NCBI GenBank assembly: GCA_021201535.1
Contig: JAJQEU010000109.1
Coordinates: 1,998 to 65,997, forward strand
Direction: 5' to 3'
DNA: 64,000 bases
Source: Clostridiales bacterium
GTDB lineage: Bacteria; Bacillota; Clostridia; Lachnospirales; Lachnospiraceae
Shown: positions 5,283-61,711 of the stretch, piece after piece
Numbering within the stretch: position 1 is the stretch's first letter
Layout of the letters: each line of letters begins with the position of its first letter
Translations under genes and position numbers: made by a program
The notes under the pieces: generated by a model
What the model was told of the DNA's origin: nothing
Seen by the model: the letters and a program-made list of their open reading frames with translations, nothing else
The model's database searches: none

Positions 5283-5309
5283 GTAACTGTGAAGGTACTG
5301 TACCGTTAC
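5283..5309 (+). repeat. 27-bp REP-like repeat, copy 1
   Basis: GTAACTGTGAAGGTACTGTACCGTTAC; related copies at 13498, 16902 and 22630. Confidence 0.75.
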
Positions 5310-5316
5310 GTACATC

Positions 5317-6318: not shown

Positions 6319-6402
6319 ATCTGCACTCCTTATATACTTTTCCTTGTGTAACTACGTCACCATACGTATTTCTCATCAGGTGCAAAGTACTGTCCTGAAC
6401 AG

Positions 6403-7338: not shown

Positions 7339-7408
7339 ATAATTCCCCTTTCGTTTTTATGACGTTACTGCCGATACGGCAGCCGCAGATCCGTTCCCGT
7401 CATCTCGC

Positions 7409-14989: not shown

Positions 14990-15048
14990 GAAGTAAATTA
15001 TATCATTAGATATTTGTCCTGACGCAGAACGATGAAAGGGATATTTTC

Positions 15049-40398: not shown

Positions 40399-40505
40399 TA
40401 ATCCGCAATGGAGGATAAACATAATGTCAACACACCCGCGACCATTAACAGGACAAAGGGGAAATGCAGACACTTCATTAATTCCGTTTTTATACAGCGC
40501 AGCAT
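40399..40505 (-). pseudogene. ABC permease-like gene, 5' fragment (split by the IS)
   Basis: GGGGAG RBS, then MLRCIKTELMKCLHFPFVLLMVAGVLTLCLSSIAD running into the IS end. Confidence 0.75.
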
Positions 40506-40519
40506 GTTTCTCTCCCCTT

Positions 40520-41836: not shown

Positions 41837-41868
41837 GGCGCTCCCCTCCTCTACAGACAAAATATCAC

Positions 41869-46254: not shown

Positions 46255-47373
46255 TTATTTTTCGGCAGTACTGACCGCGTGCGTCAATATAAATTCCCTT
46301 GCTTTGTCCCGGATCAGCTGCGCCTCCAGCGCATCCCGATCCAACGTCCGGCAAACCTCATCAAAATCCGCCGCGCACTGCTCTGCAATCCGCTCCATTG
46401 CCTGAAATACCTCCGGCTCGCCGACCCGGATCCCCTCGCGATCCGCCACCGCCGTAAACAGCACATCAAACAACGCCGCATCCCTGGCCTGATCCCTGTG
46501 TTCATCTCTCCACTGCTTTTCACTGAGTTCCATCGACCCAAGCCGGGTTTCAAACATCTCGTCACAAATTTCATCGTTGCTCATGGACGACTTTAAGTGT
46601 GCCCTCTTTGTCTGAATCTCACGCAGCTTCTGATCAAAATCCGCCGGAAGGTCATGATAACGCCTGACGCACTCTTTCACCCCTGCAAGAAAACAGTCGA
46701 TTTCTATTCCCTGTTGGTCTGCCGAGACAGACTGAAGCATATAATCCATGGCTTCCGCGCGAACCTGAGACATCGGCCGGTGTACATCCGCCGCGTGATA
46801 CGCCTCTCGCAGCAGATAAACACATTCTGTCAACATACGGCACACCGGATCCTGCACGGCAGCTGCTTTTTCCCGTGCCTCCATGGCATCCAGGCGGGCT
46901 TCCGTCATCGAATCCGGCAGGACGGTTTTCATATTTCTGCAGGCTTTCGTCAGCACGTCCGCCGCAAATCTCTCCTCATCATCCCGCGGCACATCGGTCC
47001 GGATCCCTTTATAGGGACCTAATGTCGCATCCGGATATACATCCGCTTCCACAAGAAAACGGACGCCTCCGTCCCCACGCCAGGTTATCTCCCGCAGACA
47101 GGGTTTCCCTACGGGATGAAGACGCGTTTCCCTCACGTACTGCCGGTACGCTGCGGGAATGCACAGATCGAGTGCTTCGTCATAAAGGACCCGCGGTCCG
47201 TATATTTTTTCGATTTCCTCCCGCGGCGCCAGTCCCGGTGCGTATCCGGGCACAACGATTCTATCCGTATGTTCCAGATACGCGTCATGGAGCGCCTTCG
47301 CGAACTCCTCCGGCTCCAGAATCAGCTCCGTTGTGATCGCGCCGTCCTTCCTCTCCTCGTGTTCTGCTCTCAT
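46255..47373 (-). CDS. Atypical trigger-factor-like protein (N and C domains, no FKBP domain)
   Basis: Tig N-domain pattern (VPG..PG.AP..EIEKIYG...YDEA...LGPYKG) joined to a Tig C-domain pattern (LPDSM.E...D.M; LF.AVADREGI.V.E). Confidence 0.75.
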   Translation of the reverse strand: MRAEHEERKDGAITTELILEPEEFAKALHDAYLEHTDRIVVPGYAPGLAPREEIEKIYGPRVLYDEALDLCIPAAYRQYVRETRLHPVGKPCLREITWRGDGGVRFLVEADVYPDATLGPYKGIRTDVPRDDEERFAADVLTKACRNMKTVLPDSMTEARLDAMEAREKAAAVQDPVCRMLTECVYLLREAYHAADVHRPMSQVRAEAMDYMLQSVSADQQGIEIDCFLAGVKECVRRYHDLPADFDQKLREIQTKRAHLKSSMSNDEICDEMFETRLGSMELSEKQWRDEHRDQARDAALFDVLFTAVADREGIRVGEPEVFQAMERIAEQCAADFDEVCRTLDRDALEAQLIRDKAREFILTHAVSTAEK

Positions 47374-47388
47374 ATCCGCCCTCCGATC

Positions 47389-48039
47389 CTACAGAATCAC
47401 CTTCGTTTCCGTACCGATCCCTCTCAGAACAGACATAAGGATGGCGGCGTCGTGCTCCTGCGCGTACTTTTCAAGGATATCCCGAAATGTTTTTTCCTCA
47501 TCCTCCTCCCGCGCCAGAGCGCCCAGTTCTATCAGATCCGCCCCGTAGCCGCTCATTTCGTCCAGCTTTTTCAAAAGCTCATCTTCCTCCGGCATGCGAT
47601 CCGGATAAATCCAGGTCAACACCGACTTCCGGTTATAATTGGCCGCCTCAAAAAGAATCGACCGTGTCGCATCCTCATAGGGGAGCAGCGGTGCGCTGAT
47701 CAGATCCGTGCCCTGCTTTGCCGCCTGCACAGCCAGCCTGGCGATATACATATATTTTGCCGGGTGTTTTCCCCCGATCACCGCATCCCGGAAGCTGAAC
47801 ATCAACGGTTTTTCTTTCGCCGCCTCCCGCACCGCTTTCAGTGCGGACGGCACCTCCTTAAAGGTAATCTCAAAGATATCGTCATGCTCGTCGCTGCGCC
47901 ACTCGATCGCCGCCACAGCCGGGTCGGCCGCCAGCGCTTCTGTCTGTGCGATGATATCTTTCCTGGAAGCCGCTTTCACGATACCGATGGCTGCTCCCGC
48001 TGTCAATTCTGTCCGGTTGATTTTAATTGTTCTGCTCAT
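47389..48039 (-). CDS. Type I 3-dehydroquinate dehydratase (AroD)-like protein, catalytic residues absent
   Basis: IEWRSD, PLMFSFR...GG and GADL.E.; His and Schiff-base Lys positions substituted; C-terminus short. Confidence 0.7.
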   Translation of the reverse strand: MSRTIKINRTELTAGAAIGIVKAASRKDIIAQTEALAADPAVAAIEWRSDEHDDIFEITFKEVPSALKAVREAAKEKPLMFSFRDAVIGGKHPAKYMYIARLAVQAAKQGTDLISAPLLPYEDATRSILFEAANYNRKSVLTWIYPDRMPEEDELLKKLDEMSGYGADLIELGALAREEDEEKTFRDILEKYAQEHDAAILMSVLRGIGTETKVIL

Positions 48040-48419
48040 TTCCCTGTTTCTTCCTTTCCCTCTGTACCAGATCTTTTTTTAAAAATCGCCGCTACGTTTC
48101 TTCCATATTTAAATTCATAAGAGATCTCATCCATCCTCGCATGCGTACAGGGACTCCGGTCATCCCGGACGGGATTATATAATCCTCCGGCATGCACAAA
48201 CTGCAGACCGACGCCCTCCGTGGACAGGCTGGCGGACACGGTCAGCATGCCCTCTCCCCTGTCCGCGCCGCAGATATTTAAAAACAATTCCAGCGCGGAG
48301 GCCGTAACCGCTTCCTTCCACTCGCCGGAAAATCCGGAATCCGCGTCGCCAAGGCACCGCAGATACTCTTCAAACCACGGCAGGTTCTCCCGCGCCGGAA
48401 CAATGGCCAGCTTTTCCAC
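48036..48419 (-). CDS. Degenerate RsbW/anti-sigma HATPase-like small protein
   Basis: GTG start overlapping the upstream TAG, GGAGGTG RBS; ELFLN N-box and MDEISYEFKYGRN tail. Confidence 0.55.
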   Translation of the reverse strand: MEKLAIVPARENLPWFEEYLRCLGDADSGFSGEWKEAVTASALELFLNICGADRGEGMLTVSASLSTEGVGLQFVHAGGLYNPVRDDRSPCTHARMDEISYEFKYGRNVAAIFKKRSGTEGKEETGK

Positions 48420-48850
48420 TAGCGGATCACCTCCACTTCCTCCTCCTGTCTGGAACACAGAAAAGCCTCGTGCCCTTCCTCCAGCTCGCGAACATCCGCC
48501 TCCCGCAGATCCGCTCCGGTCAGCAGCATTTCCTCGACACGCGCCAGAAGCTCCAGCCGGTTTTTGTCTTCCGGAGATGCGTAAAACAGCGACATCCGGC
48601 TGATCGCTCCAAACCGGTTGATTTCCCTCGACAGATGAGGAAGAAGTGCCAGTTCCGTGAGCGAAAGCTCCCATGGGTCGCCCACGGGCCGATCTTCCGT
48701 CTGTCCGGCCGCAGGCAAAGGGTGAAACACGCACGTCACCCCGCCGCTGGTATACTCCTCGCCCATGACCGCCTGAAGCTTTCCGTACTCTTCCCGGATA
48801 TAAAAATCCCGTTCTTCACGAATCAAATCCCGGATTTTATCTCTGTCCAT
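48419..48850 (-). CDS. Hypothetical protein (143 aa)
   Basis: Overlaps both neighbours, GGAGG RBS; no motif recognised. Confidence 0.65.
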   Translation of the reverse strand: MDRDKIRDLIREERDFYIREEYGKLQAVMGEEYTSGGVTCVFHPLPAAGQTEDRPVGDPWELSLTELALLPHLSREINRFGAISRMSLFYASPEDKNRLELLARVEEMLLTGADLREADVRELEEGHEAFLCSRQEEEVEVIR

Positions 48851-50384
48851 ATCTTCCCTCCCTGTCAAATCCATCTAAGTCCAATTGTTCCAGACGGGCG
48901 ATCCTGTCTGTGATACTCTTTTTTCGCTCCTCAAACTGCAGTTCCCTGTTATACGTATAATATTTTTCACATCCGTAATGTCCGATAAACCGTGCGCAGT
49001 AATAGTTCGCCGTGAGCTCGGTCACAAGAATCAGCATCTCATCGCCGTCCGAAAAAGCTTTTTCACAAAAATCAAATGTATTTTGGAGAATCCGCTGCGC
49101 TTCCTCCACCTCGCTCCGCAGAGAAAACAGGGTATCGTCATAGGTCTCCCGGATGATCGTAAAATCGTCCTCACCGGCGTTCTTTTTTAATATCTTTTCC
49201 CGGTACAACTCGAGCTGCGCGGCAACGCGGCGGGTTTCCTTTTGCTTTTCAGGGGACAGGGATGAGGATGCCCTGCCCTTCGCAATCTCCTCCCTCATTT
49301 CCCCGCAGTATTTTTCCAACAGCTCTGCTGCGGGAGCACCGTCCGCAATCTCCGGCCCAATCTGCCGAACCAGCCTGACCAGACGGGCGAGCATATCCTC
49401 CGTGTCGCAGATGCCTCTCATTTTCGTCGTAACCGCCCCAAAGATAATTCCCAGAAGAGAAAACCTCTCGTCTATTTTAGCCGTCGAAGCCCGCGCGACA
49501 ATATCCTCGGAAACCGTTCCGTCCAGGATCGCGTCGATTTTATAATCGCTCCGGTATTTGTGGTACAGGTCATAATAAATAGCAAAATCCCTGGCGATCT
49601 TCGGATCCTGCAGATACTGGCAGACCAGCCTGTCGTTGACGACCAGCCCGTTTTCTTCATACAGCTTTATCATCTCCGAGAGATCCTCCCAGCTTCGCGC
49701 GGTCACAAAAGTTTTGCCGTCCACAGTACTTTGAACCCGGTAAAAATCATCCGTTTTCGCGTAAAGATACGTCATGACCGCCGGATGTACGCCGTTCCTG
49801 TAAGCATAATCCTTCCAGACCTCATAATCCGGCTCCACATCGATCCGTTTCAGGCGATCCCACGTGACAATATCAAAATCCCGAACCGATTTATTATACT
49901 CGGGCGGGTTTCCCGCAGTCACTACGATCCACCCCTCCGGCAGCCTGTGCTGTCCGAAGATCTTAAACTGCAGAAACTGCAGCATACAGGGCGCGAGCGT
50001 CTCGGAAATGCAGTTGATCTCGTCCAGGAAAAGAATCCCCTCCGTGATGCCGGTATCCCGCATCAGGTCATAGACCGATCCGATGATCTCGCTCATGGTG
50101 TACTCGGAAACCTGATACGTCTTTCCGCCGTACTCTTTTTCCACAATATAGGGAAGGCCCAGGGCGCTCTGTCTGGTATGGTGCGTCATGGAATAGGAGA
50201 TCAGACCCACGCCCAGCTCCGAGGCAATCTGCCGCATGACGGCCGTTTTTCCGATTCCGGGCGGACCGATCAGAAACACCGGCCGCTGTTTTTCCGTGGG
50301 GATTTTATAACATCCGAATTCATCCTTCGTCAGATAAGCTTTCAGCGCTCCCCGGATCTGTTCTTTTGCCTCAGCGATATTCAT
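48837..50384 (-). CDS. MoxR-type AAA+ ATPase with a long helical C-terminus
   Basis: GPPGIGKT, LFLDEIN, AGNP and WDRL. Confidence 0.88.
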   Translation of the reverse strand: MNIAEAKEQIRGALKAYLTKDEFGCYKIPTEKQRPVFLIGPPGIGKTAVMRQIASELGVGLISYSMTHHTRQSALGLPYIVEKEYGGKTYQVSEYTMSEIIGSVYDLMRDTGITEGILFLDEINCISETLAPCMLQFLQFKIFGQHRLPEGWIVVTAGNPPEYNKSVRDFDIVTWDRLKRIDVEPDYEVWKDYAYRNGVHPAVMTYLYAKTDDFYRVQSTVDGKTFVTARSWEDLSEMIKLYEENGLVVNDRLVCQYLQDPKIARDFAIYYDLYHKYRSDYKIDAILDGTVSEDIVARASTAKIDERFSLLGIIFGAVTTKMRGICDTEDMLARLVRLVRQIGPEIADGAPAAELLEKYCGEMREEIAKGRASSSLSPEKQKETRRVAAQLELYREKILKKNAGEDDFTIIRETYDDTLFSLRSEVEEAQRILQNTFDFCEKAFSDGDEMLILVTELTANYYCARFIGHYGCEKYYTYNRELQFEERKKSITDRIARLEQLDLDGFDREGRYGQR

Positions 50385-50415
50385 TGCGCTCCTCCTGAAA
50401 ATCAATTACTGCCGG

Positions 50416-50526
50416 CCATCCCGGTGTTTCCTCTCTGATGAAAAACATGACCGTCCCGGCGTTTTTTACTCCGATGAAAAAGATAGCCGTCCCGGCGTTT
50501 CTGCTCAGATGGCAAACATAGCCATC
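50416..50526. repeat. Degenerate ~35-bp tandem triplication overlapping the LRR gene stop
   Basis: Units at 50416, 50451 and 50487: CCRTCCCGGYGTTT...GATG..AAA.AT.. Confidence 0.7.
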
Positions 50527-52379
50527 ACATCAATTTCGCTGCCGGAAGCTTTTCTGTGTTCCAGCAGCGCAGCGACCATCTCCATCTTCTTTTCCCGCTG
50601 GGCGCGTTCCAGCATATTCGTAAAAAGCTCCGTCCCAATCGCAAAATGTCCGGAAATATACGTCGCGGCGTCCGGCAGATTTCCCGTGACCACGGCGGAC
50701 AGGGTCTTTTCCAAATGGCTTCGGATGTATTCCCGGTACCCGGCGGCGATTCCATCCGTATATCGATCCGCGGCGCGGCAGTATCCGATGGCGGCAAAAA
50801 TCTGATCTTCCTCATCGAACTCCCCGATCGCCATTCCCGGAGCCGTGACGGAGATCAGGCTGTGGCATTGCGAAAACGGCTTTTCATGCAGCTCGCCTAC
50901 CGTCCGCGGCAGTTCGATCTCCTGCAGTGACTCCATGCCGGTAAAGGCGCGGGGACCGATTTTCTCCACGCTTTCCGGAACATATATAAACCGGATCTCC
51001 TTTTTGCCGGAAAAAGCGCCGCCCAGGATCTCCCGGATTCCTTCCGTCAGACGAAGTTCAGAACCCCGGGCGCACAGGCCGACGCATGCGCCGTCCGCCA
51101 CGACAAATCCATTCGCGTCCGCCAGCGCCGTACAACCGTCAAAACAGCCCTCGCCCAGTTCCGATATCCCGACCGGAACGGAAATCCCGACAAGACCTGC
51201 GCAGCCGGAAAATACACGCGCCCCCATATGCTCCAGAGAATCCGGCAAACGTATCCGCGCCAGCGAACGGCATTGCCCGAACGCCCCGGTTTGAAGCGAA
51301 CAGACACCGTCGGCGATATCCACCCGCTCAAGAGCCACGCACTGGGAAAACGCATCCTCCGGCACCTCCGAAACCGACGCAGGAACAGACACCTCCGTAA
51401 TGCTTCTCAGTCCCGAAAAGGCGCTTTCTCCGATAAATTCCAGGCCGTCCGGCAGCTTCAGCTCCCGGATACATCTGCAAAGGCAGAATGCCCTCCTTTC
51501 GATCCGCTTTACCGTATCAGGAATGGAAATCTTCTCGAGAGAAATACACTCATAAAAAGCGTCGATCCCGATCCGTTCCAGCCCCTCCTCCAGATTAATC
51601 CGGCTCAGATTACTGCAGCCGGAGAACGCCCAGTCTCCGATTGCCTCCACCGGTCCGTTAAACTTCACGTCGACCAGCGCGCTGCAGCCGAAAAACATCC
51701 ATCCGCGAAGCGTTTTCAGGGATGCGGGAAATTCAATCCGGTGCAGTCCCCTGCAGCCGGAGAACGCGCCTCCCTCAATCTCCTCGATCCCGTTTTCAAA
51801 GGATATGTCAGCCAGGCGCTTGCAATCCTTAAAACAGCGCCATCCGATCCGCCGGACGCTCCCGGGGATATGGATCCGGGTCAGGCCGGAGCATTCCCGG
51901 AAAGCCCTCCATCCAATCCGCAAAAGTGTACCGGGCAGTGTTATCTCATCCAGAAGGATCCTCTCCGCGAATGCGTCCGCGCTGATCTCCTCCACGCCGG
52001 CCGGCACCGACGCTCTGCGTATATTGCGCCTTGCCTTCAAAAGACACCGGCCGAGAATCAGGAAATCCTCCTGCCATTCGTTTTCATTTTCGCTGTAATA
52101 CTTATAATACGGAGTTCCCTTAAAGGCGTCATTCCCGATATGGCAAAGCGTCTGCGGAGCCCGGACTGCTTGCAGGTTATCACACCAGAGAAACGCCTCG
52201 TCCTCTACAGATTCTACGCCCTCCGGGATCACAATCTCCCGCAGGGAACGGCAGTTCTGAAACGCTTTCTCCCCAATCGTGCGCACGCCGTCCGGAAGCG
52301 TAAGATACGGCTCCTGTCCGCGGTACTTTACCAGCACCCCGTCTGTTATCTCAAAAGCATTCTCATCATCACGGTTCAT
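50505..52379 (-). CDS. BspA-type (LRR_5) leucine-rich repeat protein without a signal peptide
   Basis: About 20 repeats of LxxIxIPxxVxxIGxxAFxxC; N-terminal DGVLVKYRG cap. Confidence 0.92.
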   Translation of the reverse strand: MNRDDENAFEITDGVLVKYRGQEPYLTLPDGVRTIGEKAFQNCRSLREIVIPEGVESVEDEAFLWCDNLQAVRAPQTLCHIGNDAFKGTPYYKYYSENENEWQEDFLILGRCLLKARRNIRRASVPAGVEEISADAFAERILLDEITLPGTLLRIGWRAFRECSGLTRIHIPGSVRRIGWRCFKDCKRLADISFENGIEEIEGGAFSGCRGLHRIEFPASLKTLRGWMFFGCSALVDVKFNGPVEAIGDWAFSGCSNLSRINLEEGLERIGIDAFYECISLEKISIPDTVKRIERRAFCLCRCIRELKLPDGLEFIGESAFSGLRSITEVSVPASVSEVPEDAFSQCVALERVDIADGVCSLQTGAFGQCRSLARIRLPDSLEHMGARVFSGCAGLVGISVPVGISELGEGCFDGCTALADANGFVVADGACVGLCARGSELRLTEGIREILGGAFSGKKEIRFIYVPESVEKIGPRAFTGMESLQEIELPRTVGELHEKPFSQCHSLISVTAPGMAIGEFDEEDQIFAAIGYCRAADRYTDGIAAGYREYIRSHLEKTLSAVVTGNLPDAATYISGHFAIGTELFTNMLERAQREKKMEMVAALLEHRKASGSEIDVMAMFAI

Positions 52380-52438
52380 ACGAACACCTCTTACCAGCTG
52401 TTACAGCGCTCGGTTGCGCGATACCCTGATACATATGA

Positions 52439-54040
52439 TTAAGACGATAAACTGTCCTCCCGCAGCACAACCTTCATTGCCCAGTGCGGAACCTCGGGCG
52501 TTTCTCGCCCCGTATCCAGAAACACAAACGCCGTGTCATATTTCGGCGGCATGGCCGGATAAGTTCCATAGCCGTCCGTAAAATAAATCATCCCCCGCAG
52601 ATTGGAAAATTCATGGCGGCGGAGCAGCCCGTCGACATATGTGAACACCGGACGGAAATCCGTTCCTCCGAAGCCCTTTAAGCTCATACCCTCCATATAT
52701 CGGTCAAACTCTTCCTGCGAAGTGATTTTCTGATCCTCCTCCACCCGCGCGCCGCACTGTATGATATGCACATTGACCGTAGTGAAAAAATTTTCACTCT
52801 GTTTCATGATATTCCAGGTCTTTGCGACAAACGCCTGCACGACCTCGCCGGCGACGGACTGGGATGTATCCAGTGCGATCACAAACTCCCGCACCTTTCG
52901 GACCTCTTTGGACTCCAACGGTTCGATCAGTGGCATCCTTCCGTACCGTTTCATCGCCCAGGTATACAAAATGGGGTCAAATTCATCGTCGTTGACCTCG
53001 ATATTCTCCCCGAGAACGGAAAACTTTCTCAGAAATTCAGCGTAATCGTATCTCTCCCGGCTGATCTCCCGCAGCGCCTGTATCAGATTGCCGTCGGAAC
53101 TGCCCCAGGTATCCGGCATGGTATCCAGTTCTACCCGGATCCGCTCCGAAATCTCCTGCCACCGGCGTTTTAATTCCTCCGGCGACAGCGCCTGCCGATC
53201 CTTTATTTCATCTTTCCGGTTTTCGTCGGAGGGCAGGCCTCCTGTGTCTGTCGAATCCTTTTTCTCTCCCGCGGGATTCCCGCCGGCGGCGTCCGTCTGC
53301 GGGGCATCCTCCGCGTCCGGTTCCGGCGGTCCGGCGCCGCCCGGGCTATCCGCGTCGCCCGTCTCCGGCGGCGTTTCCTTCGCGTCCTCCGTCCGGTCAG
53401 AGCGTTTCCCTTCGTCGGAACTGTCCGGCGCGGATGGTTCTCCGTACCAGAATTCATGGTCGTCCGCGTAAAAATACTCCCGCAGCCGTGTCATCTCGCT
53501 TTTTTCCAGCCCGGACTCTTTGAAATGCCGGTAGATCCGCTCCGCGGTCAGGGCGGGCAGCTCATCCTTTAACCGGACGATCAGCCACTGCTGCCGCTCC
53601 TGGCGTTCACAGAAAAATGTCTTCACATTCTGCTCCGCGATGATGTTTTCCACCATAATATCACAGGAGAGATCCCAGAGCTCCCGGTCAATCTTCGCGT
53701 CCACAAACAGATGGCGAAACACACAGTGGAGAACCAGATGCAGATAATTCCGGTTCACGATCGCCGGCGACCGCTGAAACTGTCTGCACAGGTAATCCGA
53801 ATGATAGAACAGGCTTCTCCCGTCCGTAGCAATCTCCGGTGTCGCGCTCTCTTCCCCGAACCGGATCTCAAGCAATGCCGATTCCAGAAAACGGAAATTC
53901 AGCAGGATAGTATTGCGGGAAAGGCGCAGAATATCCTTCGACAGGTCCGAAGCTTCCCGCCGCCTCCTCATATCGTCTAAGTCAGCATAATGTCCGTCGA
54001 AAGTCCGAGCATATTTCGGCAGCTGATCCGCAGTCTCCAT
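52439..54040 (-). CDS. DUF2201-type metallopeptidase-like and VWA domain protein
   Basis: ATDG...Y, HLVLHCVFRH, acidic linker, MIDAS LDTSQS, GGTDFRPVF and YFTDGYG. Confidence 0.88.
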   Translation of the reverse strand: METADQLPKYARTFDGHYADLDDMRRRREASDLSKDILRLSRNTILLNFRFLESALLEIRFGEESATPEIATDGRSLFYHSDYLCRQFQRSPAIVNRNYLHLVLHCVFRHLFVDAKIDRELWDLSCDIMVENIIAEQNVKTFFCERQERQQWLIVRLKDELPALTAERIYRHFKESGLEKSEMTRLREYFYADDHEFWYGEPSAPDSSDEGKRSDRTEDAKETPPETGDADSPGGAGPPEPDAEDAPQTDAAGGNPAGEKKDSTDTGGLPSDENRKDEIKDRQALSPEELKRRWQEISERIRVELDTMPDTWGSSDGNLIQALREISRERYDYAEFLRKFSVLGENIEVNDDEFDPILYTWAMKRYGRMPLIEPLESKEVRKVREFVIALDTSQSVAGEVVQAFVAKTWNIMKQSENFFTTVNVHIIQCGARVEEDQKITSQEEFDRYMEGMSLKGFGGTDFRPVFTYVDGLLRRHEFSNLRGMIYFTDGYGTYPAMPPKYDTAFVFLDTGRETPEVPHWAMKVVLREDSLSS

Positions 54041-54120: not shown

Positions 54121-56559
54121 TTAATCCCGCTCCGGCAGCGGCGGCATCGTATCAAACTTCTGTCTCAGATCCTCCGCTCCGAATTCAGTCTTTCCCGTTT
54201 TTTCATTTTCACGAAGCGCTCTCCACAGGCGTTCCGGCGTAATCGGAAGCTCCCGAAGCGTCAGGCCGGTCGCGTAGTTGATCGCGTTGCCGATCGCCGA
54301 ACCGACCGGTGCGGTACTTCCCTCGCCCGCCTCCTTCGCCCCAAGCGGTCCTTCCGGATCGTATTCGCTGCAGATAAAGGTCCTGATATTCGGCATATCC
54401 AGAGCCGTCGGGAAACGGTAATCACGAAAGCTCGGATTTAAGTGCCGACCCTCGCTGCTGTACTGGCACTCCTCATAACAGGTAAAACCGAAACCGAGCA
54501 GTACGGAACCTTCGATCTGCCCCTCCACCGCGCGGATATTCAGCGGCCTTCCGCAGTCATGCCCGAACGCGAAATCGTCAAGCGAAACCTGTCCGGTCTC
54601 CTTATCCACCGTAACCTTCGCCGCCGATGCGGAGAAAGAATACGCGGTCGCGTAGTTTCCTACATTTTTCACATAAATATCCTTGTCGCCCTCATGCGCG
54701 AACGAACCCACGCCCACGACGCAGCGTCCGAAGTTTTTCTCCTCATATCCGAACAGCGCCTCATTGTAAGAAATATTCTTTTCCGGGTCGCCCTTGATAA
54801 AGACGCGGTGGTCCTTCATGGTAATGTCGGAGGGTTTGCACCCCCACTCCTCTGCCCAGTGGGAAAGCAGCTTGAACTTTGCGTCTCCCACCGCCCGGTG
54901 GCAGGCGTTTCCGCCGAGGAAAGTCACACGGGAGCCGAAGGAACCCGCATCCCACGGCGTCGTCGTCGTGTCGGACTGCACACACTTAACCTCGTCCATC
55001 CGGAGCCCCAGCTCCTCCGCCACGATCATCGTCATCACCGTATCGCATCCCTGCCCGATGTCGTTGGCGCCGGTAAATACAACCGCGTATCCCTCACGGT
55101 TCAGCCTGACGATCGTGGAAGCCGAACAGTAATGGGGCGTTACCAGTACGGGGAACCCGGTGCCGGACATGAATCCGGAGCCCGACAATCCCACGCCCTC
55201 CCCGCTTCCGAGCGGATACCGCCACCTGTGTTCCCAGTCGATCGCATCAGCAACCGCCGTCAGGCACTCGTCAAATTTACAGGAGGTAAATTCCAGACCG
55301 GTAGGGCCGGTATAATACGGCGTAATCTCATTATCACGGCGCAGCTTCAGCGGATCGATGCCAAGGGAATTCGCCACCTCATCCATGTGTATCTCATGGG
55401 CGAAATGTACCTGACACGCCGAATAACCTCTCATGGCGCCGGAAGCGGGGTGGTTGGTGTATGGCCTCCGCGCCGTCATGTCGATGTTTTCCACCTTGTA
55501 GGGAAAGGTCGCGCAGATCAGCGAAAGGGTATTGGCCGCAATGCCGGATCCTCCGTAGGCTCCCCCGTCCAGGATATGCTTGCAGCGTTTTGCCAGAAGC
55601 TTTCCTTCCTTTGTGAAAGCGCTCTCAATCTCAAAGGAAATGGGATGTCTGGTTCTTGTACACATAAATACCTCATCCCGCTTTAAAATGCACTTGACCG
55701 GATGGCCGGTCATCTGTGCGAACTTGCACGGGCAGAGCTCATGGGCGAATGCGTCCAGCTTTCCGCCGAACCCGCCGCCGATCATCGGCTTGATCAGATG
55801 CACCTGGCTCTCCGGCACACCAAGCCCCCAGGCAATCCAGTAACGGCTGACATAAGCGCCCTGCGTCGTCGTCCAGATCGTATATTCCCCATTCTCGTAC
55901 TTTGCGATCGCCCCGTGCGGCTCAATCGCCGCGTGAACCATCTCCTGCGTCTTATAATAATGCTTATCCGTGTAATAGGCTTCCTCAAACACCCGGTCCG
56001 GCTCTCCCGCCTTCATGGTGGTAAAAATAGAGAGATTACCCGTCCCCGGATAATGGATCGCCGGAGCGTCCGGCTGCATGGAGTAAAACGGATCCAGCAC
56101 CGGTTCCAGCGGTTCGTATTCTACCTTTACCAGCGCCGCCGCCTCCGTGGCGGCCTCCTCCGTCGTGGCGCAGACCGCGGCGACCTCGTCGCCGGCCATA
56201 CGGACCTTTTTACGGCACAGCGGCTCCTTGTCCGCCAGCTCCTTGAAAGCCTCAGGGTTCCCCAGGTTGTGTCCCTCCGGGAAATCCTTTCCGGTAAGCG
56301 TCGCCTTTACCCCCGGCACCTTCAGCGCTTCCGTGAAATCAATGCTTTTGATGAGCGCATGGGCGTAGGGGCTGTGTACCAGCTTACAATACCATGTGCC
56401 GGGCAGATCCACGTCGTCCGTATAGACCGCGGAGCCGGTTACCTTTGCCTCCGCGTCGATCCTGATATACGCGTTTCCCCTGCCTGCCAGTTCATAATCC
56501 TCGGGATCCTTGTATACGCTCTCTACATCCGCGTAATATTCTTTCGCCATAACCGCCAT
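54121..56559 (-). CDS. Xanthine-oxidase-family molybdopterin-binding large subunit (HcrA/CoxL-like)
   Basis: AKVTG...Y.DD, HAAIEPH, TTTQ, GGGFGGK, GAMRG, DIGQG, SRVTF.GGNA, EGQIEG and GAKEAGE; TAATG coupling to the 2Fe-2S gene. Confidence 0.93.
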   Translation of the reverse strand: MAVMAKEYYADVESVYKDPEDYELAGRGNAYIRIDAEAKVTGSAVYTDDVDLPGTWYCKLVHSPYAHALIKSIDFTEALKVPGVKATLTGKDFPEGHNLGNPEAFKELADKEPLCRKKVRMAGDEVAAVCATTEEAATEAAALVKVEYEPLEPVLDPFYSMQPDAPAIHYPGTGNLSIFTTMKAGEPDRVFEEAYYTDKHYYKTQEMVHAAIEPHGAIAKYENGEYTIWTTTQGAYVSRYWIAWGLGVPESQVHLIKPMIGGGFGGKLDAFAHELCPCKFAQMTGHPVKCILKRDEVFMCTRTRHPISFEIESAFTKEGKLLAKRCKHILDGGAYGGSGIAANTLSLICATFPYKVENIDMTARRPYTNHPASGAMRGYSACQVHFAHEIHMDEVANSLGIDPLKLRRDNEITPYYTGPTGLEFTSCKFDECLTAVADAIDWEHRWRYPLGSGEGVGLSGSGFMSGTGFPVLVTPHYCSASTIVRLNREGYAVVFTGANDIGQGCDTVMTMIVAEELGLRMDEVKCVQSDTTTTPWDAGSFGSRVTFLGGNACHRAVGDAKFKLLSHWAEEWGCKPSDITMKDHRVFIKGDPEKNISYNEALFGYEEKNFGRCVVGVGSFAHEGDKDIYVKNVGNYATAYSFSASAAKVTVDKETGQVSLDDFAFGHDCGRPLNIRAVEGQIEGSVLLGFGFTCYEECQYSSEGRHLNPSFRDYRFPTALDMPNIRTFICSEYDPEGPLGAKEAGEGSTAPVGSAIGNAINYATGLTLRELPITPERLWRALRENEKTGKTEFGAEDLRQKFDTMPPLPERD

Positions 56560-57041
56560 TATGCACGCACCTCCCTCGCCAAAACCTTCGCCGCGGCGTC
56601 GATTGCCTCCACGATCTTCGCATAGCCTGTACATCTGCACAGGTTGCCCGCGATACCGTCCCTGATCTCCTGCTCCGTGGGATGCGGATTTTCATGCAGC
56701 AGAGATAACGCGGACATGATCATGCCCGGTGTACAGAAGCCGCACTGCAGCGCCCACTTATCCATAAATTCTTTCTGCACCGGATGCAGCACTCCGTCCT
56801 TTTTGACACCTTCGATCGTCACGACCTCATGGCCGTCCGCCTCCACGGCAAGCATCATGCAGGAATCAATCGCCGCCCCGTCCAGGAGAATGGTGCACGC
56901 GCCGCATTCTCCTTCCTCGCAGCCTCTTTTCGTACCTGTCAGATGCATCTGTTTCCGGAGGAAATCCACCATGGTAAGCCCGTCGGCGACCAGCTCCTCC
57001 ACATCCTCTCCATTAAGTTTAAAGCTAATGATATGTTTCAC
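56559..57041 (-). CDS. 2x[2Fe-2S] small subunit (CoxS/XdhC-type ferredoxin subunit)
   Basis: GCEEGECGACT, QCGFCTPG and GNLCRCTGY. Confidence 0.96.
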   Translation of the reverse strand: MKHIISFKLNGEDVEELVADGLTMVDFLRKQMHLTGTKRGCEEGECGACTILLDGAAIDSCMMLAVEADGHEVVTIEGVKKDGVLHPVQKEFMDKWALQCGFCTPGMIMSALSLLHENPHPTEQEIRDGIAGNLCRCTGYAKIVEAIDAAAKVLAREVRA

Positions 57042-57056
57042 GCTGATTCCTCCTTC

Positions 57057-57944
57057 CTACACTTTCCGCGTCGCGACCGCTTCTTTTATGGCACGCTTTG
57101 TATAGACGCGCACCATATCCGCCCGGTACTCCGCGGATGCCCGGACGTCGGAAATGGGCTTCGCCTCTCCCATGGCCAGCCGGCCGGCTTCCTCCAGCGT
57201 CTCCTCAGTGATCTCTCTGCCTTTTAAGAACTCCTCCGCCTGACAGGCGCGCAGGGGAGTGATCCCGACGCCTCCCATGGCGATTCTCACATCTGCAACC
57301 GTTTTTTTATCCATCCGGATCCACGCCGCCACTCCGATAATCGCCAGATCCATCGCCTTCCTCACAGAATGCTTAAAATAAGCGGATCCCTCACCGGACT
57401 TTAACGCCGATATCAGAATCTCCGTCACAATCTCCCCGCCGTTTTTATCCAGGCAGGTCTTTTTGACGCCCTTGAAAAATTCTCCGATCGGGATGATCCT
57501 GCCGCCTCCCGGACGGTAAGTGGAAACCTCCGCGTTCATCGCCAGTAAAATCGAAGCGGTATCCGCGGACGGCGATGCGTTGCAGATATTTCCCGCCATG
57601 GTTCCCTTGCGGCGGATCTGAGCGGAAGCCACATAATGCGCCGCCTGAGAAACCGCGGGCATCTTTTCCCTGACAAGGTCAGATGTCTGGATGGCGAACA
57701 GCTTTGTGTTCGCGCCGACCCTTAGCCCTCTCCCTTCTTCAAATTCCAGCGTATCCAGCCCCGGGATCCCCTTGATATCGACCACAGAATCCACATCCTT
57801 TAAGACACGCTCTTTCAGCAAGATGATCACGTCCGTCCCGCCGGACATAAGAATCGCGCGCGGACCAAGCTCTGTCATTTTCGCAGAGGCTTCCTCCAGA
57901 CTTCGGACCGCGTAATAATCAATTGCCGGTAAAGCCATACTCAT
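57057..57944 (-). CDS. FAD-binding medium subunit (CoxM-type)
   Basis: GGTDV, ASAQIRRKGTMAGNICNASPSAD and ISDVRASAEYR; no [4Fe-4S] Cys insert. Confidence 0.94.
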   Translation of the reverse strand: MSMALPAIDYYAVRSLEEASAKMTELGPRAILMSGGTDVIILLKERVLKDVDSVVDIKGIPGLDTLEFEEGRGLRVGANTKLFAIQTSDLVREKMPAVSQAAHYVASAQIRRKGTMAGNICNASPSADTASILLAMNAEVSTYRPGGGRIIPIGEFFKGVKKTCLDKNGGEIVTEILISALKSGEGSAYFKHSVRKAMDLAIIGVAAWIRMDKKTVADVRIAMGGVGITPLRACQAEEFLKGREITEETLEEAGRLAMGEAKPISDVRASAEYRADMVRVYTKRAIKEAVATRKV

Positions 57945-58094
57945 TTCCTTCCTTTCTTTGTTGCTTCTTTTGACAAAAGTTTATCAAAAAGAACCCGGGG
58001 AAGCCATGCGCATATGCGACAGGGGTTGCAAATGCGACTAACGCATTTTTATTTTCCCTGCAGCGTTCCCGATCTCATCCTTCTTTTCATCCTG

Positions 58095-58757
58095 TTATAT
58101 GCTTTCCGATCCGTCCGGAAGCGGCGCGGGACGAACGCCGACGCGTACCACCTGAAACCGCTCTCTGCCGTTCTCTTCCTGTCGCGACAGCGTCGTAACG
58201 CCTCCGCCGGGCTGCGGAATCGCCATCACATCTTTTGCGCTTTTCATTTCAATCTGTTCTGTCAGACATATGGCCGCGCGTATAACACCCGCATGCGCGA
58301 CGACGATCAGATCATCCTCCGGCGTCTGCCGGGAAAGCAGAGACAGTTCTTTCAGGAAGCGCTCTCCGGCCTCCCGAAAGGTTTCCGCGCCCGGCACCCG
58401 ATAATCGCCAATGTTCTCTCCTCTCTTTTCATATTCCCCGGGATACCGCTCCCTGATTTCACGAAACGTCAGACCGTCCCAGGCGCCCATGGACGCTTCC
58501 CGCAGATTCTCCCGCACCAGAATATCTGGTTTTCCATCGGAAAACAGCAGATCTGCGCTTTCCCTGCAGCGCAGCAGCGGACTGGTATAGACTTTTCCCC
58601 CGGTACAGATCCTTTGCTCTGCCATCTGTCCCGCAAACCAGTTTCCCAACAGTTCCATCTGCCGGATCCCGCGCGCGCTGAGCGGGAGATCCGTACAGCC
58701 GATGCAGCGTCCCTCCCGGCGCGCCGCCGTTTCCCCGTGTCTGATAAGATAGATCAT
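58095..58757 (-). CDS. Histidine phosphatase (PGAM/CobC-like)
   Basis: IRHGET, TSPL.RC, E...G.WDG, GAE and VVAHAGVIR. Confidence 0.9.
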   Translation of the reverse strand: MIYLIRHGETAARREGRCIGCTDLPLSARGIRQMELLGNWFAGQMAEQRICTGGKVYTSPLLRCRESADLLFSDGKPDILVRENLREASMGAWDGLTFREIRERYPGEYEKRGENIGDYRVPGAETFREAGERFLKELSLLSRQTPEDDLIVVAHAGVIRAAICLTEQIEMKSAKDVMAIPQPGGGVTTLSRQEENGRERFQVVRVGVRPAPLPDGSESI

Positions 58758-58760
58758 CCT

Positions 58761-59681
58761 TTACCCCTGCTTTATGAAAACCGCCGTCCCGTGAAGATCC
58801 ATAAGGGGAACGACAAACAAACCGTTTTCCTCACAGTAACGCCGCGCCGCCCTGCGGACGCCCGGAAACTGCAGGCTGTTATAATCATGGAGGACAATGC
58901 ATCCGCCCGCCGCCAGCCTGGGATAGAAAAACCGCAGCCCCTGATAAACCGGCTCGCCAAGATCAGGATCCAGACTGACCAGCGCAAGTTCTCCCATCTC
59001 ATCCGACAGTCCCCCCGAAACACTATCCGGGAAATATCCTGCAATCAGGCGCGCCTTCTCAGGATAAGGAAGCCTTTTTTCGACTGTCTCCACACTCGTA
59101 TCCGAGAAATCGCACAGACGCGCAGAGGCCTTTCTTCCATCGGGGACAATCCTCCTCTCGATCTCGAGATCCCGCGCATCAAAACCACAGAACGTGTCAA
59201 ACAGAAAAAGCCGGCGTTCGGGAAACAGCCGGTTCAGCTCGACCGCCGTATCTCCCCGATAGACGCCAAGCTCCGCAATGCTGCCGGAGACTCCTCTCTC
59301 TCGGATTTCCCGCGCCAGCAAACGGATCACGGCAAGCCTGGCGTCCTGGCTGCCGCGGTAAAACAGAGCCTCCCTTATGTCCCCCACAAAACCGGCCTGT
59401 AAAATCTGATTTTTGATCCCGGTATTCGCCTGTCTGTTTAAAGTCCCGATACAGATCACATCCGGCCGCCGATCCAAAGCACACAACAGCGGCAGGACCG
59501 GAACGCCATCGATCTCGCTTCCCTGCAATGTTTCATCGTTATCAATATAACAGATCAGCTGGTGATCCGCAGGCAGCCAGGCCGAAATCATCCGCCCAGC
59601 CTGCCCGGCGCCGAAAATTGCCGTTCGAACCGCGTCATTCGTCCGGTCGTTGATTCTGTCACACTTTTTAATTGTCGTCAT
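58761..59681 (-). CDS. TylF/MycF/NovP-family O-methyltransferase with an N-terminal Rossmann-like domain
   Basis: IFGAGQAG N-domain; AELGVYRG, LFDTFCGF, GYFPDS, LVSLDPDL and LHDY; ATGA overlap with xdhC. Confidence 0.85.
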   Translation of the reverse strand: MTTIKKCDRINDRTNDAVRTAIFGAGQAGRMISAWLPADHQLICYIDNDETLQGSEIDGVPVLPLLCALDRRPDVICIGTLNRQANTGIKNQILQAGFVGDIREALFYRGSQDARLAVIRLLAREIRERGVSGSIAELGVYRGDTAVELNRLFPERRLFLFDTFCGFDARDLEIERRIVPDGRKASARLCDFSDTSVETVEKRLPYPEKARLIAGYFPDSVSGGLSDEMGELALVSLDPDLGEPVYQGLRFFYPRLAAGGCIVLHDYNSLQFPGVRRAARRYCEENGLFVVPLMDLHGTAVFIKQG

Positions 59682-60718
59682 ATTGCCTCCAGGAGTACAT
59701 CCAGAACACCGCCGCAGACCATGCCCTCGTCCTCCGCTGCCTCCGCGGTCATATCTACATGAATCAGCTCCGGTGTGAAGGAATCCCTGATCATAAGCTG
59801 CCGGCCACGGTTTGCCACCTCGGCTTCCACACAGCCGCCGCCGATCGTTCCGATCGTCCTTCCATCCGGCAGAATCAGCATCTTGGTTCCGGTCTCCCGA
59901 GGTGCGGAACCCCTGCGCCTGACAATCGTCGCCAGAACCTCTCTGGATGCGCCGCACCCCGGAATCTCCGGAGGCTCCAGAATGCCTTTTAATATTTCCT
60001 TTGAGTATCCGCAGTGATTCTTTTTCTTATTCTTGACCTCCACAATCTGAGCCATGACCGAGATCGCGATTTCTTCCGGGGTCTCCGCCCCGATATCCAG
60101 GCCGATCGGAGAATAGACCTGATCCAGCACGCTTTTATCTACTCCCTCCGCAACAAGAGATTCCTTCACAAGAGCGACCCTCCGCCGGCTTCCGATCATA
60201 CCGATATAACCGTGCGGCTTTGCCGCGATCGCCCGCAGACATTCCCTGTCATACCGATGCCCTCTGGTCACGATCACAAAATAGGTGTCCGCGTCTCCGC
60301 TCACCTGCCGGAGGCTGTTTTCAAAAGAATCAACAAGAATTTCATCAGTGCCCTGCCGTCTCGCGTTGTTTGCGTACGTCGGCCGATCCTCCAGTACGGT
60401 AACATGGCAGCCCAGCATCCGACCCATGGAAATGATCGGCATGGACACATGCCCGCCGCCGCAAATCACAATTTTTTTCTCGTTTCCGAGTATCTCACTG
60501 TAAATACGATTCCCCGCCAGATCGGCCAGACCGCAGATATCAATCCCTGAAATTGCTTTTTCGTAACTGGAAAAAAAGCCCCTGTCCTCTGTTTCCCACA
60601 CGAGTTTTCCATTTGAAAACAGCGCTTTTTTTCCGATTTGATCACCCTCGATCACTGTAAAGACCTGATTCCTGTAATTTGGGTTGATCCTGCTGATTTT
60701 TTCATATAATTCGATCAT
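59678..60718 (-). CDS. XdhC/CoxI family Moco chaperone (Rossmann domain before the CoxI domain)
   Basis: GGGHVS, IVTRGH..D, YIGMIGSRR, PIGLDIGAETPEEIAIS, GSAPR..G.KM, GTIGGGC.E and CGG. Confidence 0.92.
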   Translation of the reverse strand: MIELYEKISRINPNYRNQVFTVIEGDQIGKKALFSNGKLVWETEDRGFFSSYEKAISGIDICGLADLAGNRIYSEILGNEKKIVICGGGHVSMPIISMGRMLGCHVTVLEDRPTYANNARRQGTDEILVDSFENSLRQVSGDADTYFVIVTRGHRYDRECLRAIAAKPHGYIGMIGSRRRVALVKESLVAEGVDKSVLDQVYSPIGLDIGAETPEEIAISVMAQIVEVKNKKKNHCGYSKEILKGILEPPEIPGCGASREVLATIVRRRGSAPRETGTKMLILPDGRTIGTIGGGCVEAEVANRGRQLMIRDSFTPELIHVDMTAEAAEDEGMVCGGVLDVLLEAI

Positions 60719-60766
60719 ATAAAGCCCCTCCATTCTGATCTGATTCATATGATATTGCTATTGCTT

Positions 60767-61711
60767 CTACATAATATTCTCCCGCCGCCAGTCAGCGTCC
60801 GGAAAGATATCGTCATACTTCTTTTTCGCAAACTCTTCTATCTGGCCCACGTATTCCTCATACAACGCCAGCAGCCGTCTGCCCCGTTCGGACACTGACG
60901 CCGTGCCTCCGTTTCGTCCGCCCGGCTTTCGCTCAATAATGCGATAGCCCAGTTCATCCTCCGCGAGCTTAATGATATGCCATCCCTTGCTGTAGGAAAT
61001 ACCCATTTTTTCACACGCATCCCGGACATTTCCCAATCGATCTACCAGACGCAGCAGCGTGGCCGTTCCCTGACCGAAAAAATGCTGTTTACCGGCCAGA
61101 TGCACCCGCACCTCCGCCCGCATCAGACGCTGATCGTGAAGACGTACCAGTCTCTCAAAATCCGTCTGCGTATCTGCGTCAATCATGGCGCCTTCATCCG
61201 TTACCGGAAGCAGATACGGCACGATATCCATGGACAAAAAAGCTCCTTTCAGCCCTCCTTCACCCTCATAACGCAGAATGTCCGGCAGCAGCCCGGCGTC
61301 GATCAGAACCGGATGCCCCCACTTTTCCCGGCTGACGGGTATAATCAGCGGTTCTTCCCGCGAAAGCTCTTCATGCACCGTATGTTCCGTAAACAAAGCG
61401 ACATCCGCCGGGCAGAAAAAGACGCGGTCACACCGTCCTTTAAGAAAATCAAAACCGATTTTTGCCGAGTCAAGCATCTGCGTCGTCTCGTAATTGCGAT
61501 TCTCCAGGAAAGTAACTCCCAGATTGTTCAGGCTTTTCCTTAACTCCTCCGAGCGGTAACCGGTAACCACAACGATGTCCCTGACCCCGCATTTTCTGAA
61601 ATTTACAATGACCCTTTCCGTCAGCATCATGTCCCCGATCTTCATCATCTGTTTAAACTGCTTCATTCGGGTGGACATGCCCGCCGCAGCAATTACCGCA
61701 CCTGTTCTCAC
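60767..61711 (-). CDS. MocA/MobA-like nucleotidyltransferase fused to a ModE-type winged HTH
   Basis: IAAAGMSTRM, D...F, GHPVLI and DADT..D; C-terminal A...MGISYSKGW...ER..GG..GG...S..G. Confidence 0.85.
   Translation of the reverse strand: MRTGAVIAAAGMSTRMKQFKQMMKIGDMMLTERVIVNFRKCGVRDIVVVTGYRSEELRKSLNNLGVTFLENRNYETTQMLDSAKIGFDFLKGRCDRVFFCPADVALFTEHTVHEELSREEPLIIPVSREKWGHPVLIDAGLLPDILRYEGEGGLKGAFLSMDIVPYLLPVTDEGAMIDADTQTDFERLVRLHDQRLMRAEVRVHLAGKQHFFGQGTATLLRLVDRLGNVRDACEKMGISYSKGWHIIKLAEDELGYRIIERKPGGRNGGTASVSERGRRLLALYEEYVGQIEEFAKKKYDDIFPDADWRRENIM

Follow-up and report, generated by a model that had tools for sequence, protein, structure and literature searches.

A Ucd-Like Molybdenum Enzyme Operon in a Clostridiales Genome: A Candidate Reductive Dehydroxylase Accompanied by an AAA+/VWA Accessory Module

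Introduction

Within the xanthine-oxidase (XO) family, reductive dehydroxylation was known only for the reductase of 4-hydroxybenzoyl-CoA (4-HBCR) until the Ucd and Uxd enzymes were described in 2025, and the authors of that work expect more such enzymes to be found. A concrete candidate is the operon analyzed here, located at positions 54121-57944, on the minus strand, of a 64 kb stretch of a Clostridiales genome (GCA_021201535.1, contig JAJQEU010000109.1); this whole stretch is referred to as the window. The operon encodes a three-subunit XO-family enzyme that belongs to the Ucd lineage and is not HcrA, XdhA, PaoC or CoxL, and it lies in a conserved gene cluster that is widespread among gut-type Clostridia. 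A preliminary description of this DNA had proposed that its molybdenum (Mo) subunit, by virtue of motifs resembling those of 4-HBCR, is part of a reductive dehydroxylase, and that the substrate may be a hydroxylated aromatic compound or a cyclitol, not a purine.

The Ucd enzyme (UcdCFO or UcdhABC, from Enterocloster bolteae and relatives) consists of a flavin adenine dinucleotide (FAD) subunit encoded by ucdC, a [2Fe-2S] subunit encoded by ucdF and a Mo subunit encoded by ucdO, an order that had been given correctly in the preliminary description, and UcdC does not have the [4Fe-4S] loop of HcrB (PMC11760930). In Enterocloster, ucd is flanked by TylF genes and a Crp/Fnr regulator that are co-induced with it, and MATE-type efflux genes, which are not placed in the conserved ucd neighborhood, are upregulated by urolithin C (PMC11760930). 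The purified enzyme, Ucdh, uses NADH to turn urolithin C into urolithin A and does not need a catechol, and it has been proposed to follow a mechanism similar to that of 4-HBCR, in which the hydroxyl group is para to an electron-withdrawing group (PMC11760930, PMC12771579). The 10-hydroxy urolithin dehydroxylase of Enterocloster, UxdFOC, is the second reductive XO-family phenol dehydroxylase (PMC12658268); compared by its description, it differs from the window operon in its gene order (FeS, Mo, FAD) and in UxdC, which has extra [4Fe-4S] and FAD/NAD(P)-binding domains.

The Three-Gene Operon

From head to tail, the operon is formed by the genes of a UcdC/CoxM-like FAD subunit (57057..57944, minus strand; 295 amino acids (aa); Pfam FAD_binding_5 and CO_deh_flav_C), a subunit carrying a pair of [2Fe-2S] clusters (56559..57041, minus strand; 160 aa; Pfam Fer2 and Fer2_2) and a UcdO-like catalytic subunit predicted to carry Mo as molybdopterin-cytosine-dinucleotide (54121..56559, minus strand; 812 aa; Pfam Ald_Xan_dh_C, MoCoBD_1 and MoCoBD_2). 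The ATG of the Mo-subunit gene overlaps the stop codon of the FeS-subunit gene, while the mechanical open reading frame (ORF) extends to 56640, and the FAD subunit may start at the second ATG, at 57938. The a/b hammerhead and the two MoCo-binding domains of the Mo subunit (PF01315, PF02738 and PF20256) are all far over their gathering scores. This exact protein has no entry in the assembly index, and a search for sequencing runs that contain the operon returned none.

The translation of the Mo subunit contains the motifs IWTTTQ, GAMRG, GVGLSGSGFMSGT, TGANDIGQG, SRVTFLGGNA and GAKEAGEG. These are the six motifs that had been reported for it, and translation, alignment with HcrB and a cysteine count also bear out the reported FAD/2Fe-2S/Mo order and missing [4Fe-4S] insert. 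The motif sites are homologous positions (E about 1e-179) and not chance matches. Gln233, in TTTQ, and Glu746, which is the second of the Glu residues in GAKEAGEG, align with their equivalents in HcrA, UcdO, XdhA and PaoC, and the catalytic Glu is the equivalent of bovine E1261 and UcdO E741 (the bovine numbering is from the literature). The position equivalent to bovine Glu802 is occupied by Leu in the window protein and in UcdO and by Gln in E. coli XdhA, which is weak evidence and was not used as a discriminator.

The 2Fe-2S subunit has eight Cys with the canonical spacing (41, 46, 49, 61 and 100, 103, 135, 137). The FAD subunit is colinear with CoxM/CutM and has just three dispersed Cys (121, 164 and 234); HcrB aligns to it in two pieces, and approximately 32 HcrB residues (approximately 118-151) have no counterpart in it. 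The unmatched segment and the small number of scattered Cys indicate that the [4Fe-4S] loop is absent from the window protein. Since this loop is missing, input of electrons from ferredoxin is unlikely, unlike the situation in HcrB.

Affinity With HcrA and XdhA

No NCBIfam model reaches equivalog level with the Mo subunit, which falls under every cut-off of the xanthine dehydrogenase (XDH), PucD, Se-XDH, carbon monoxide dehydrogenase (CODH) and aldehyde-oxidoreductase models. The best is TIGR03194 (4-hydroxybenzoyl-CoA reductase alpha), which reaches 596.3 bits where its cut-off demands 994.55, and lower scores are obtained with NF007426 (E. coli-type XdhA; 512, cut-off 916), TIGR03196 (395, cut-off 784) and TIGR03311 (345, cut-off 830). 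UcdO produces the same ranking of models (626, 541 and 530), and the top scores of the FAD subunit are those of XdhB models. Among solved structures compared by sequence, HcrA of Thauera aromatica (PDB 1rm6_A) is the best match, with 375 bits versus 284 for a CoxL; nicotinate dehydrogenase was compared by its PDB score only. The AlphaFold2 model of the Mo subunit (predicted local distance difference test 89, predicted template modeling score 0.90) has the XO-family fold, and its best fold match is likewise HcrA (template modeling scores 0.89/0.95, root mean square deviation 2.2 Å), with CODH at about 0.85.

The motifs that had been listed for HcrA (GAMRG, FVSGT, TGAADIGQG, SRVTF and GAKEASEG) are present in 1rm6_A residue by residue. 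Their value as a signature is unequal: a column-by-column comparison shows that GAMRG and (S/T)GA.(D/E)IGQG are also present in E. coli XdhA, and these two motifs therefore do not separate HcrA-like from XdhA-like proteins. SRVTF, GAKE(A/S)..EG, F(V/M)SGT and a loop of approximately 18 residues (GDKDIYVKNVGNYATAYSF) are common only to HcrA and the window and Ucd-like clades; the E. coli proteins XdhA, XdhD and PaoC do not have them. The reductive dehydroxylase HcrABC differs in other respects, given that most of the Ucd pocket positions are different in HcrA (L330, H360, T450, K609 and A617) and that the window Mo subunit is 33% identical to it. Over the trimmed alignment the identity is 32.7% with HcrA and 32.0% with E. 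coli XdhA.

Relationship to Ucd

The UcdO comparator is locus L001, from a Clostridia metagenome-assembled genome (MAG), which was located by scanning a genome collection with the gene-specific part of the Ucdh cloning primer (supplementary information of PMC12771579). Its Mo protein has 787 aa and carries W345, Y375, F458, F464, Y624, Y632 and E741 at the published numbering, that is, seven of the eight named residues (PMC11760930); the remaining position, 536, is Phe in L001 and Tyr in five of the six members of the Ucd clade. The 90%-identity cluster of this protein also holds records labeled Enterocloster and Hungatella. It is treated as an orthologue of UcdO and not as the reference protein itself, because the primer matched this MAG and not an E. 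bolteae record; it has F536 in place of Y536 and approximately 320 bp extra between ucdC and ucdF. Compared with L001, the window Mo subunit is 53% identical over 771 aa, the FAD subunit 53% (with UcdC) and the 2Fe-2S subunit 63% (with UcdF).

A tree was built with 107 homologues together with UcdO, HcrA and the E. coli proteins XdhA, XdhD and PaoC (outgroup); NdhL and CoxL are outside it. The window protein groups with UcdO, to the exclusion of HcrA, XdhA and XdhD, in 100 of 100 bootstraps, whereas it groups with XdhA, excluding HcrA, in only 2 of 100. The group formed by the window protein and UcdO joins HcrA in 54 of 100 bootstraps, HcrA being placed outside the Ucd-like superclade, and the clade of the window protein forms a branch apart from that of Ucd. 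The phylogeny that had been suggested as a check of the preliminary description thus places the protein apart from E. coli XdhA, XdhD and PaoC. The affinity with HcrA that it had emphasized holds as far as the best family model and the best structure are concerned, and was overstated in view of the near-equal identities to HcrA and XdhA, a model score of 596 where 994.55 is required and the 54 of 100 bootstraps.

Of the proposed active-site pocket of UcdO, which is a model in the source paper, the window protein keeps seven of the eight residues (Y375, F458, F464, F536, Y624, Y632 and E741). Apart from the pocket, the window protein is distinguished from UcdO by a C-terminal tail of approximately 25 residues. 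The two systems share the order FAD/2Fe-2S/Mo, the FAD subunit without a [4Fe-4S] loop, TylF methyltransferase and Crp/Fnr neighbors (with MATE genes in sister loci of the window) and a predicted dependence on maturation of the XdhC/MocA type. They differ in their hosts, as those of the window type are Clostridia other than Enterocloster, and in the genes added to the window cluster: a histidine phosphatase, present in the window and in the related locus L007, and a downstream module formed by a DUF2201-VWA (von Willebrand factor A) protein, a leucine-rich repeat (LRR) protein, an AAA+ ATPase, a small protein and a trigger-factor-like protein.

The Accessory Module and the Regulators

The module occupies positions 46255-54040, on the minus strand, and begins directly behind the operon. 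The first gene (52439..54040, minus strand) encodes a DUF2201_N/DUF2201 protein with a metallopeptidase-like domain and a VWA domain (Pfam), the latter with the metal-ion-dependent adhesion site motif DTSQS. It is followed by the gene of a cytoplasmic BspA-type LRR protein (50505..52379, minus strand; 624 aa, no signal peptide; Pfam LRR_5, E 4e-137), homologues of which, 36-46% identical, are found at the same position in nine loci, and by that of an AAA+ ATPase (48837..50405, minus strand; about 515 aa; Pfam AAA/AAA_5, MoxR-like) with the Walker A sequence GPPGIGKT, which is 56-64% identical across all cluster loci. A conserved small protein comes next (48419..48874, minus strand; 151 aa, no Pfam match), and the module is closed by a trigger-factor-like chaperone (46255..47373, minus strand; Pfam Trigger_N and Trigger_C).

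This arrangement is joined to a Ucd-like operon in nine loci, namely the window, L004, L005, L007, L013 and L018-L021, with the same content of a DUF2201/VWA protein, an LRR protein of approximately 640 aa, an AAA+ ATPase of approximately 510 aa, a protein of approximately 150 aa and a trigger-factor paralogue. L004, L005 and L007 were found through the Mo protein, L013 through the AAA protein and L018-L021 through DUF2201 homologues with 51-57% identity; all four of the loci picked by DUF2201 homology (L018-L021) have the module 3' of a Mo gene. The fact that the downstream set recurs at loci reached independently through three different proteins indicates that it is not accidental. In the window, L004, L005, L013 and L018-L021, the DUF2201 gene is directly downstream of the Mo gene, and in these related loci the small-protein gene follows the AAA gene and the trigger-factor-like gene is kept. 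In L007 the module is rearranged, and the LRR/DUF2201/AAA triad runs in the same direction as xdhC, mocA and a MoCF_biosynth gene and directly adjoins them. The sister loci also have genes for TylF, Crp and MatE. Within 10 kb, the triad is absent from the Dehalobacter, Lentihominibacter-type and Ucd branches. A literature search did not find a paper characterizing this cluster.

Two Crp/Fnr-family regulators (NCBIfam) lie beyond the module, on the plus strand, at 44789-45496 and 45512-46222. The first is 54% identical to the Crp of L021. In L004, L018, L019 and L020, the Crp encoded immediately upstream of the FAD subunit shares 41-48% identity with the second.

The closest known likeness of the module is found next to the Mo-Cu CO dehydrogenase, where CoxD (AAA+, MoxR-class), CoxE (VWA) and CoxF (XdhC-like) are encoded beside the XO structural genes and act post-translationally on the Mo site (PMC4240915, PMC3471820). 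Based on this precedent of an AAA+/VWA/XdhC-like trio that acts on an XO-family Mo site, the module is probably, by analogy, an assembly or reactivation machinery for the enzyme. The likeness shown is one of gene types. In the window, the VWA protein belongs to the DUF2201 type and has a metallopeptidase-like N-domain, the ATPase has about 515 aa, and the LRR protein, the small protein and the trigger-factor paralogue are additional. An anti-phage defense system was also considered for the AAA+/VWA/LRR set and was discarded, since PADLOC gave zero matches and no defense signature.

A stand-alone and more distant LRR/DUF2201/AAA triad (AAA 53% identical) is found in L015, at 3835-7785, in a context of sugar metabolism. 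There are no XO genes within about 6-8 kb of it, and the module thus also exists alone.

Upstream Genes

Upstream of the operon, four further genes are encoded on the minus strand. The nearest encodes a histidine phosphatase (58095..58757; 220 aa; Pfam His_Phos_1, E 1e-43), and the next a TylF-family O-methyltransferase with an N-terminal extension (58761..59681; Pfam TylF). The latter is 36% identical to the methyltransferase beside ucd in L001 and 39-45% identical to the copies in L004, L007 and L018-L021, and the TylF and His_Phos_1 pair is also present 3' of the Mo gene in L007. The two following genes, adjacent to the structural genes, correspond to probable maturation functions: a molybdenum cofactor (Moco) insertion chaperone of the XdhC family, of the aldehyde-oxidoreductase-associated type (59678..60748; Pfam XdhC_C and XdhC_CoxI; NCBIfam XdhC_rel_AOR 268, cut-off 350), and a MocA-like molybdopterin cytidylyltransferase fused to a ModE-type helix-turn-helix domain (60767..61711; Pfam NTP_transf_3 and HTH_1; NCBIfam DVU_1551-family, MocA and ModE_repress). 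In the XdhC-like protein, the Rossmann domain precedes the XdhC_CoxI domain.

The region immediately upstream of the operon (57945..58094, minus strand) contains a putative motif, GCATTTGCA-N13-ATGCGCAT, which is common with L004; it adjoins an inverted repeat both in the window (57945-58094) and in L004 (7794-7938). There is no sigma-54 promoter upstream of the window operon. Instead of the motif of the window and L004, the branches represented by L007, L009 and L011, which have sigma-54 activators, show clear TGGCA-N-TTGC -24/-12 promoters.

The DHquinase_I-Like Protein

Between the small-protein gene and the trigger-factor-like gene, two more genes are encoded on the minus strand: that of a small N-domain protein of approximately 127 aa (48036..48419) and, ATGA-coupled to it, that of a DHquinase_I-like protein (47389..48039; 216 aa; Pfam E 2e-14). 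The possibility that they represent a frameshifted pseudogene was ruled out, as they are two ATGA-coupled genes whose products form one fused protein of 341 aa in L004.

This AroD-like neighbor had been taken in the preliminary description as a hint of a quinate-, shikimate- or protocatechuate-type ligand. A closer look at the protein does not support quinate or shikimate, nor the cyclitol substrate. Its score with TIGR01093 is 47.6, against a cut-off of 139.3, and alignment to the AroD structures 3js3 and 4guf shows that the catalytic His143 and the Schiff-base Lys170 of type I dehydroquinases are both replaced ('SNHDF' by 'TWIYP' and 'PKIA' by 'IELG'), as they also are in the homologues of L019 and L020. 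Moreover, the gene is present in only four of the ten cluster loci (the window, L004, L019 and L020). The protein may bind a ligand, and, judging from its sequence, it does not speak for quinate or shikimate as the substrate.

Conservation and Distribution

The subunits of the enzyme and the accessory proteins are conserved to very different degrees. Between the window and L004 and L018-L021, the identity is 85-91% for the Mo subunit, 81-84% for the 2Fe-2S subunit, 58-71% for the FAD subunit and 30-64% for the accessory proteins; in the remaining cluster loci, the Mo subunit is 70-80% identical. A recent horizontal transfer as the cause of the 91% identity of the Mo subunit was ruled out by the nucleotide identity of the operon, of about 75% between the window and L004. 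The combination of high protein identity and low nucleotide identity suggests that the catalytic subunit is under strong purifying selection.

In metagenome assemblies, the 90%-identity cluster of the window Mo subunit comprises about 1,100 members. The hosts are genomes labeled Lachnospiraceae/Clostridiales, Oscillospiraceae and Anaerovoracaceae, and that of L018 (GCA_024459955.1) is labeled Anaerovorax odorimutans and not flagged as a MAG. The window contig itself falls, by its AspRS, among MAGs of uncultured Clostridiales/Lachnospiraceae. Searches of plasmids with tblastn returned only rhizobial XO-family matches, of approximately 35% identity.

Two related loci have unusual arrangements. 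L012 (ENA ERZ15610583, a 90 kb contig) carries three tandem Ucd-like FAD-FeS-Mo operons with two TylF genes and Crp and LysR regulators, an expansion of paralogues that recalls that of the catechol dehydroxylases. L011 (GCA_031553035.1) has a single FAD-FeS pair and, behind it, two Mo genes (775 and 784 aa) with a DUF2798-like membrane protein between them.

Proposed Function and Alternatives

The reading put forward here is that the window enzyme works as a reductive aryl-OH dehydroxylase of a phenolic compound, driven by NAD(P)H, a proposal to which we would give somewhat better than an even chance. It is suggested by the 53% identity to UcdO, the grouping with it in all bootstraps and the shared gene order and neighbors, and to that extent the reaction and the substrate class (a hydroxylated aromatic and not a purine) proposed in the preliminary description gain support. 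The enzyme would be a cytoplasmic heterotrimer of the Ucd type, probably arranged as a dimer of trimers, with molybdopterin-cytosine-dinucleotide as its cofactor, which the XdhC and MocA-like proteins would mature and insert. By homology, electron flow would be reversed: NAD(P)H would donate electrons to FAD, and the two [2Fe-2S] clusters would pass them on to the Mo center. At Mo, the C-OH of a phenolic compound would become C-H with loss of water, the hydroxyl probably being para to an electron-withdrawing group; for Ucdh, such a conversion of urolithin C with NADH has been shown. Neither a CoA thioester nor a purine is likely to be the substrate. The VWA/LRR/AAA+/small-protein/trigger-factor-like module would probably assemble or reactivate the enzyme, and the TylF O-methyltransferase, the Crp regulators and the MATE protein of the sister loci would complete an inducible system for a diet-derived phenolic.

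Several observations weigh against this proposal. The XO family is mostly oxidative and the sequence determinant of the direction is not known, while Ucdh homologues from outside Enterocloster are all <60% identical and have been described as having a function that is 'currently unknown' and as proteins that 'may catalyze other reductive transformations' (PMC12771579). The 53% identity of the Mo subunit is below the >90% at which Ucdh activity is confirmed, and at such a distance the substrate and even the direction of the reaction can differ. The tree is a neighbor-joining tree with few characterized references, the NF043082 model (XdhA_XDHase) scores 548 (cut-off 780), nearly as high as the HcrA model, and nothing equivalent to the accessory module is present in the ucd locus of L001 (8 kb examined) or in the ucd neighborhood of PMC11760930. 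Lastly, the equivalent of W345 of UcdO is Cys349 in the window Mo subunit (codon near 55513-55515). At this position there is a Cys in 29 of the 31 members of the window branch and in L018-L021, and a Trp in every other Ucd-like branch, a replacement that points to a related, and not identical, aromatic substrate. As the pocket Trp is a Cys clade-wide, the substrate may differ from urolithin C.

The predominance of oxidative enzymes in the family makes it necessary to consider that this is an ordinary oxidative Mo hydroxylase or dehydrogenase for an N-heterocycle, a purine-like compound or an aldehyde, which passes its electrons to NAD+ or another acceptor and resembles Ucd and HcrA by ancestry. 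This would agree with the proximity of the XDHase and E. coli-type XdhA scores (548 and 512) to that of HcrA (596), with the equal identities to XdhA and HcrA, with the GAMRG and IGQG motifs of E. coli XdhA and with the XdhB models that head the list of the FAD subunit. We regard it as unlikely, given that all the cut-offs for XDH, PucD, Se-XDH, CODH and aldehyde oxidoreductase are missed, that the bootstraps favor UcdO (100/100) over XdhA (2/100) and that Ucd and Uxd, the two relatives characterized from the gut, both work reductively. The gene content of the window points in the same direction. No purine-catabolic genes are present among its annotated ORFs or by tblastn, and searches of it by tblastn with E. 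coli proteins gave no match for YqeC, SsnA or YgfK and only a match of YqeB to the generic XdhC Rossmann domain, in agreement with the absence of yqeB/yqeC selenium genes noted previously. Somewhat less likely again is a different reductive reaction, such as C-S cleavage, the conversion of urate to xanthine or another deoxygenation. Activities of this kind have been cited for XO-family enzymes of gut bacteria (PMC12771579), and the Cys in place of W345 and the unique accessory module could be accommodated by them; the aromatic-rich pocket of UcdO is otherwise kept, and neither ergothioneine-pathway nor purine-pathway genes are present in the window, as judged from the same annotation and searches.

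That the enzyme is an isofunctional orthologue of Ucd, which would dehydroxylate 9-hydroxy urolithins in Clostridia other than Enterocloster and thereby form urolithin A from urolithin C, is improbable. The gene order, seven of the eight pocket residues, the TylF and Crp neighbors and the MATE genes of sister loci are all in its favor, but the proven orthologues are >90% identical and confined to Enterocloster, where urolithin C metabolism tracks the presence of ucd, and the window protein, at 53% identity, belongs to a separate branch with a different residue at position 345. A true 4-HBCR of anaerobic aromatic degradation is more improbable still, in spite of HcrA coming first among both the NCBIfam models and the solved structures and of the use of this name for some relatives by JGI pipelines: the model score is well under its cut-off (596 versus 994.55), the identity is 33%, the [4Fe-4S] loop for ferredoxin input is missing and HcrA is outside the Ucd-like superclade. 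In addition, the annotated ORFs of the window (64 kb) include no genes for an aryl-CoA ligase, a benzoyl-CoA reductase or the benzoyl-CoA pathway (the rest of the genome is not covered by this observation).

If the window enzyme is indeed a reductive phenol dehydroxylase, the discovery of its substrate could provide a gene for one of the phenol dehydroxylations of the gut microbiota that have long been known and still lack one, and the AAA+/VWA/LRR/trigger-factor module could explain why such enzymes are hard to express in active form. A broader proposal, possible yet doubtful at present, is that the whole cluster (Crp, FAD, FeS, Mo, DUF2201-VWA, LRR, AAA+, small protein, trigger-factor-like, TylF and MATE) constitutes a widespread and undescribed system of gut Clostridia, in which a Ucd-like reductive Mo enzyme has its own ATP-driven MoxR/VWA/LRR and trigger-factor-paralogue machine, analogous and not orthologous to CoxD/E/F, and acts on a common phenolic derived from the diet or the host. 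If this were true, the common substrate would account for the 85-91% identity of the Mo subunit across bacterial families, compared with 30-70% for its neighbors.

Other Genes of the Window

The remaining annotated ORFs of the window, which do not include every ORF, correspond mainly to housekeeping, phosphotransferase system, two-component, CoA-transferase and MttB-family proteins, and several have no Pfam match. The latter are exemplified by four successive ORFs on the minus strand (300, 293, 524 and 446 aa) at 36946-41860, between an ATP-binding cassette ATPase and a two-component system. At 13556-16886, an uninterrupted MttB-superfamily methyltransferase (477 aa) adjoins a sodium:solute symporter, and the pair may represent a unit for the demethylation of quaternary amines.

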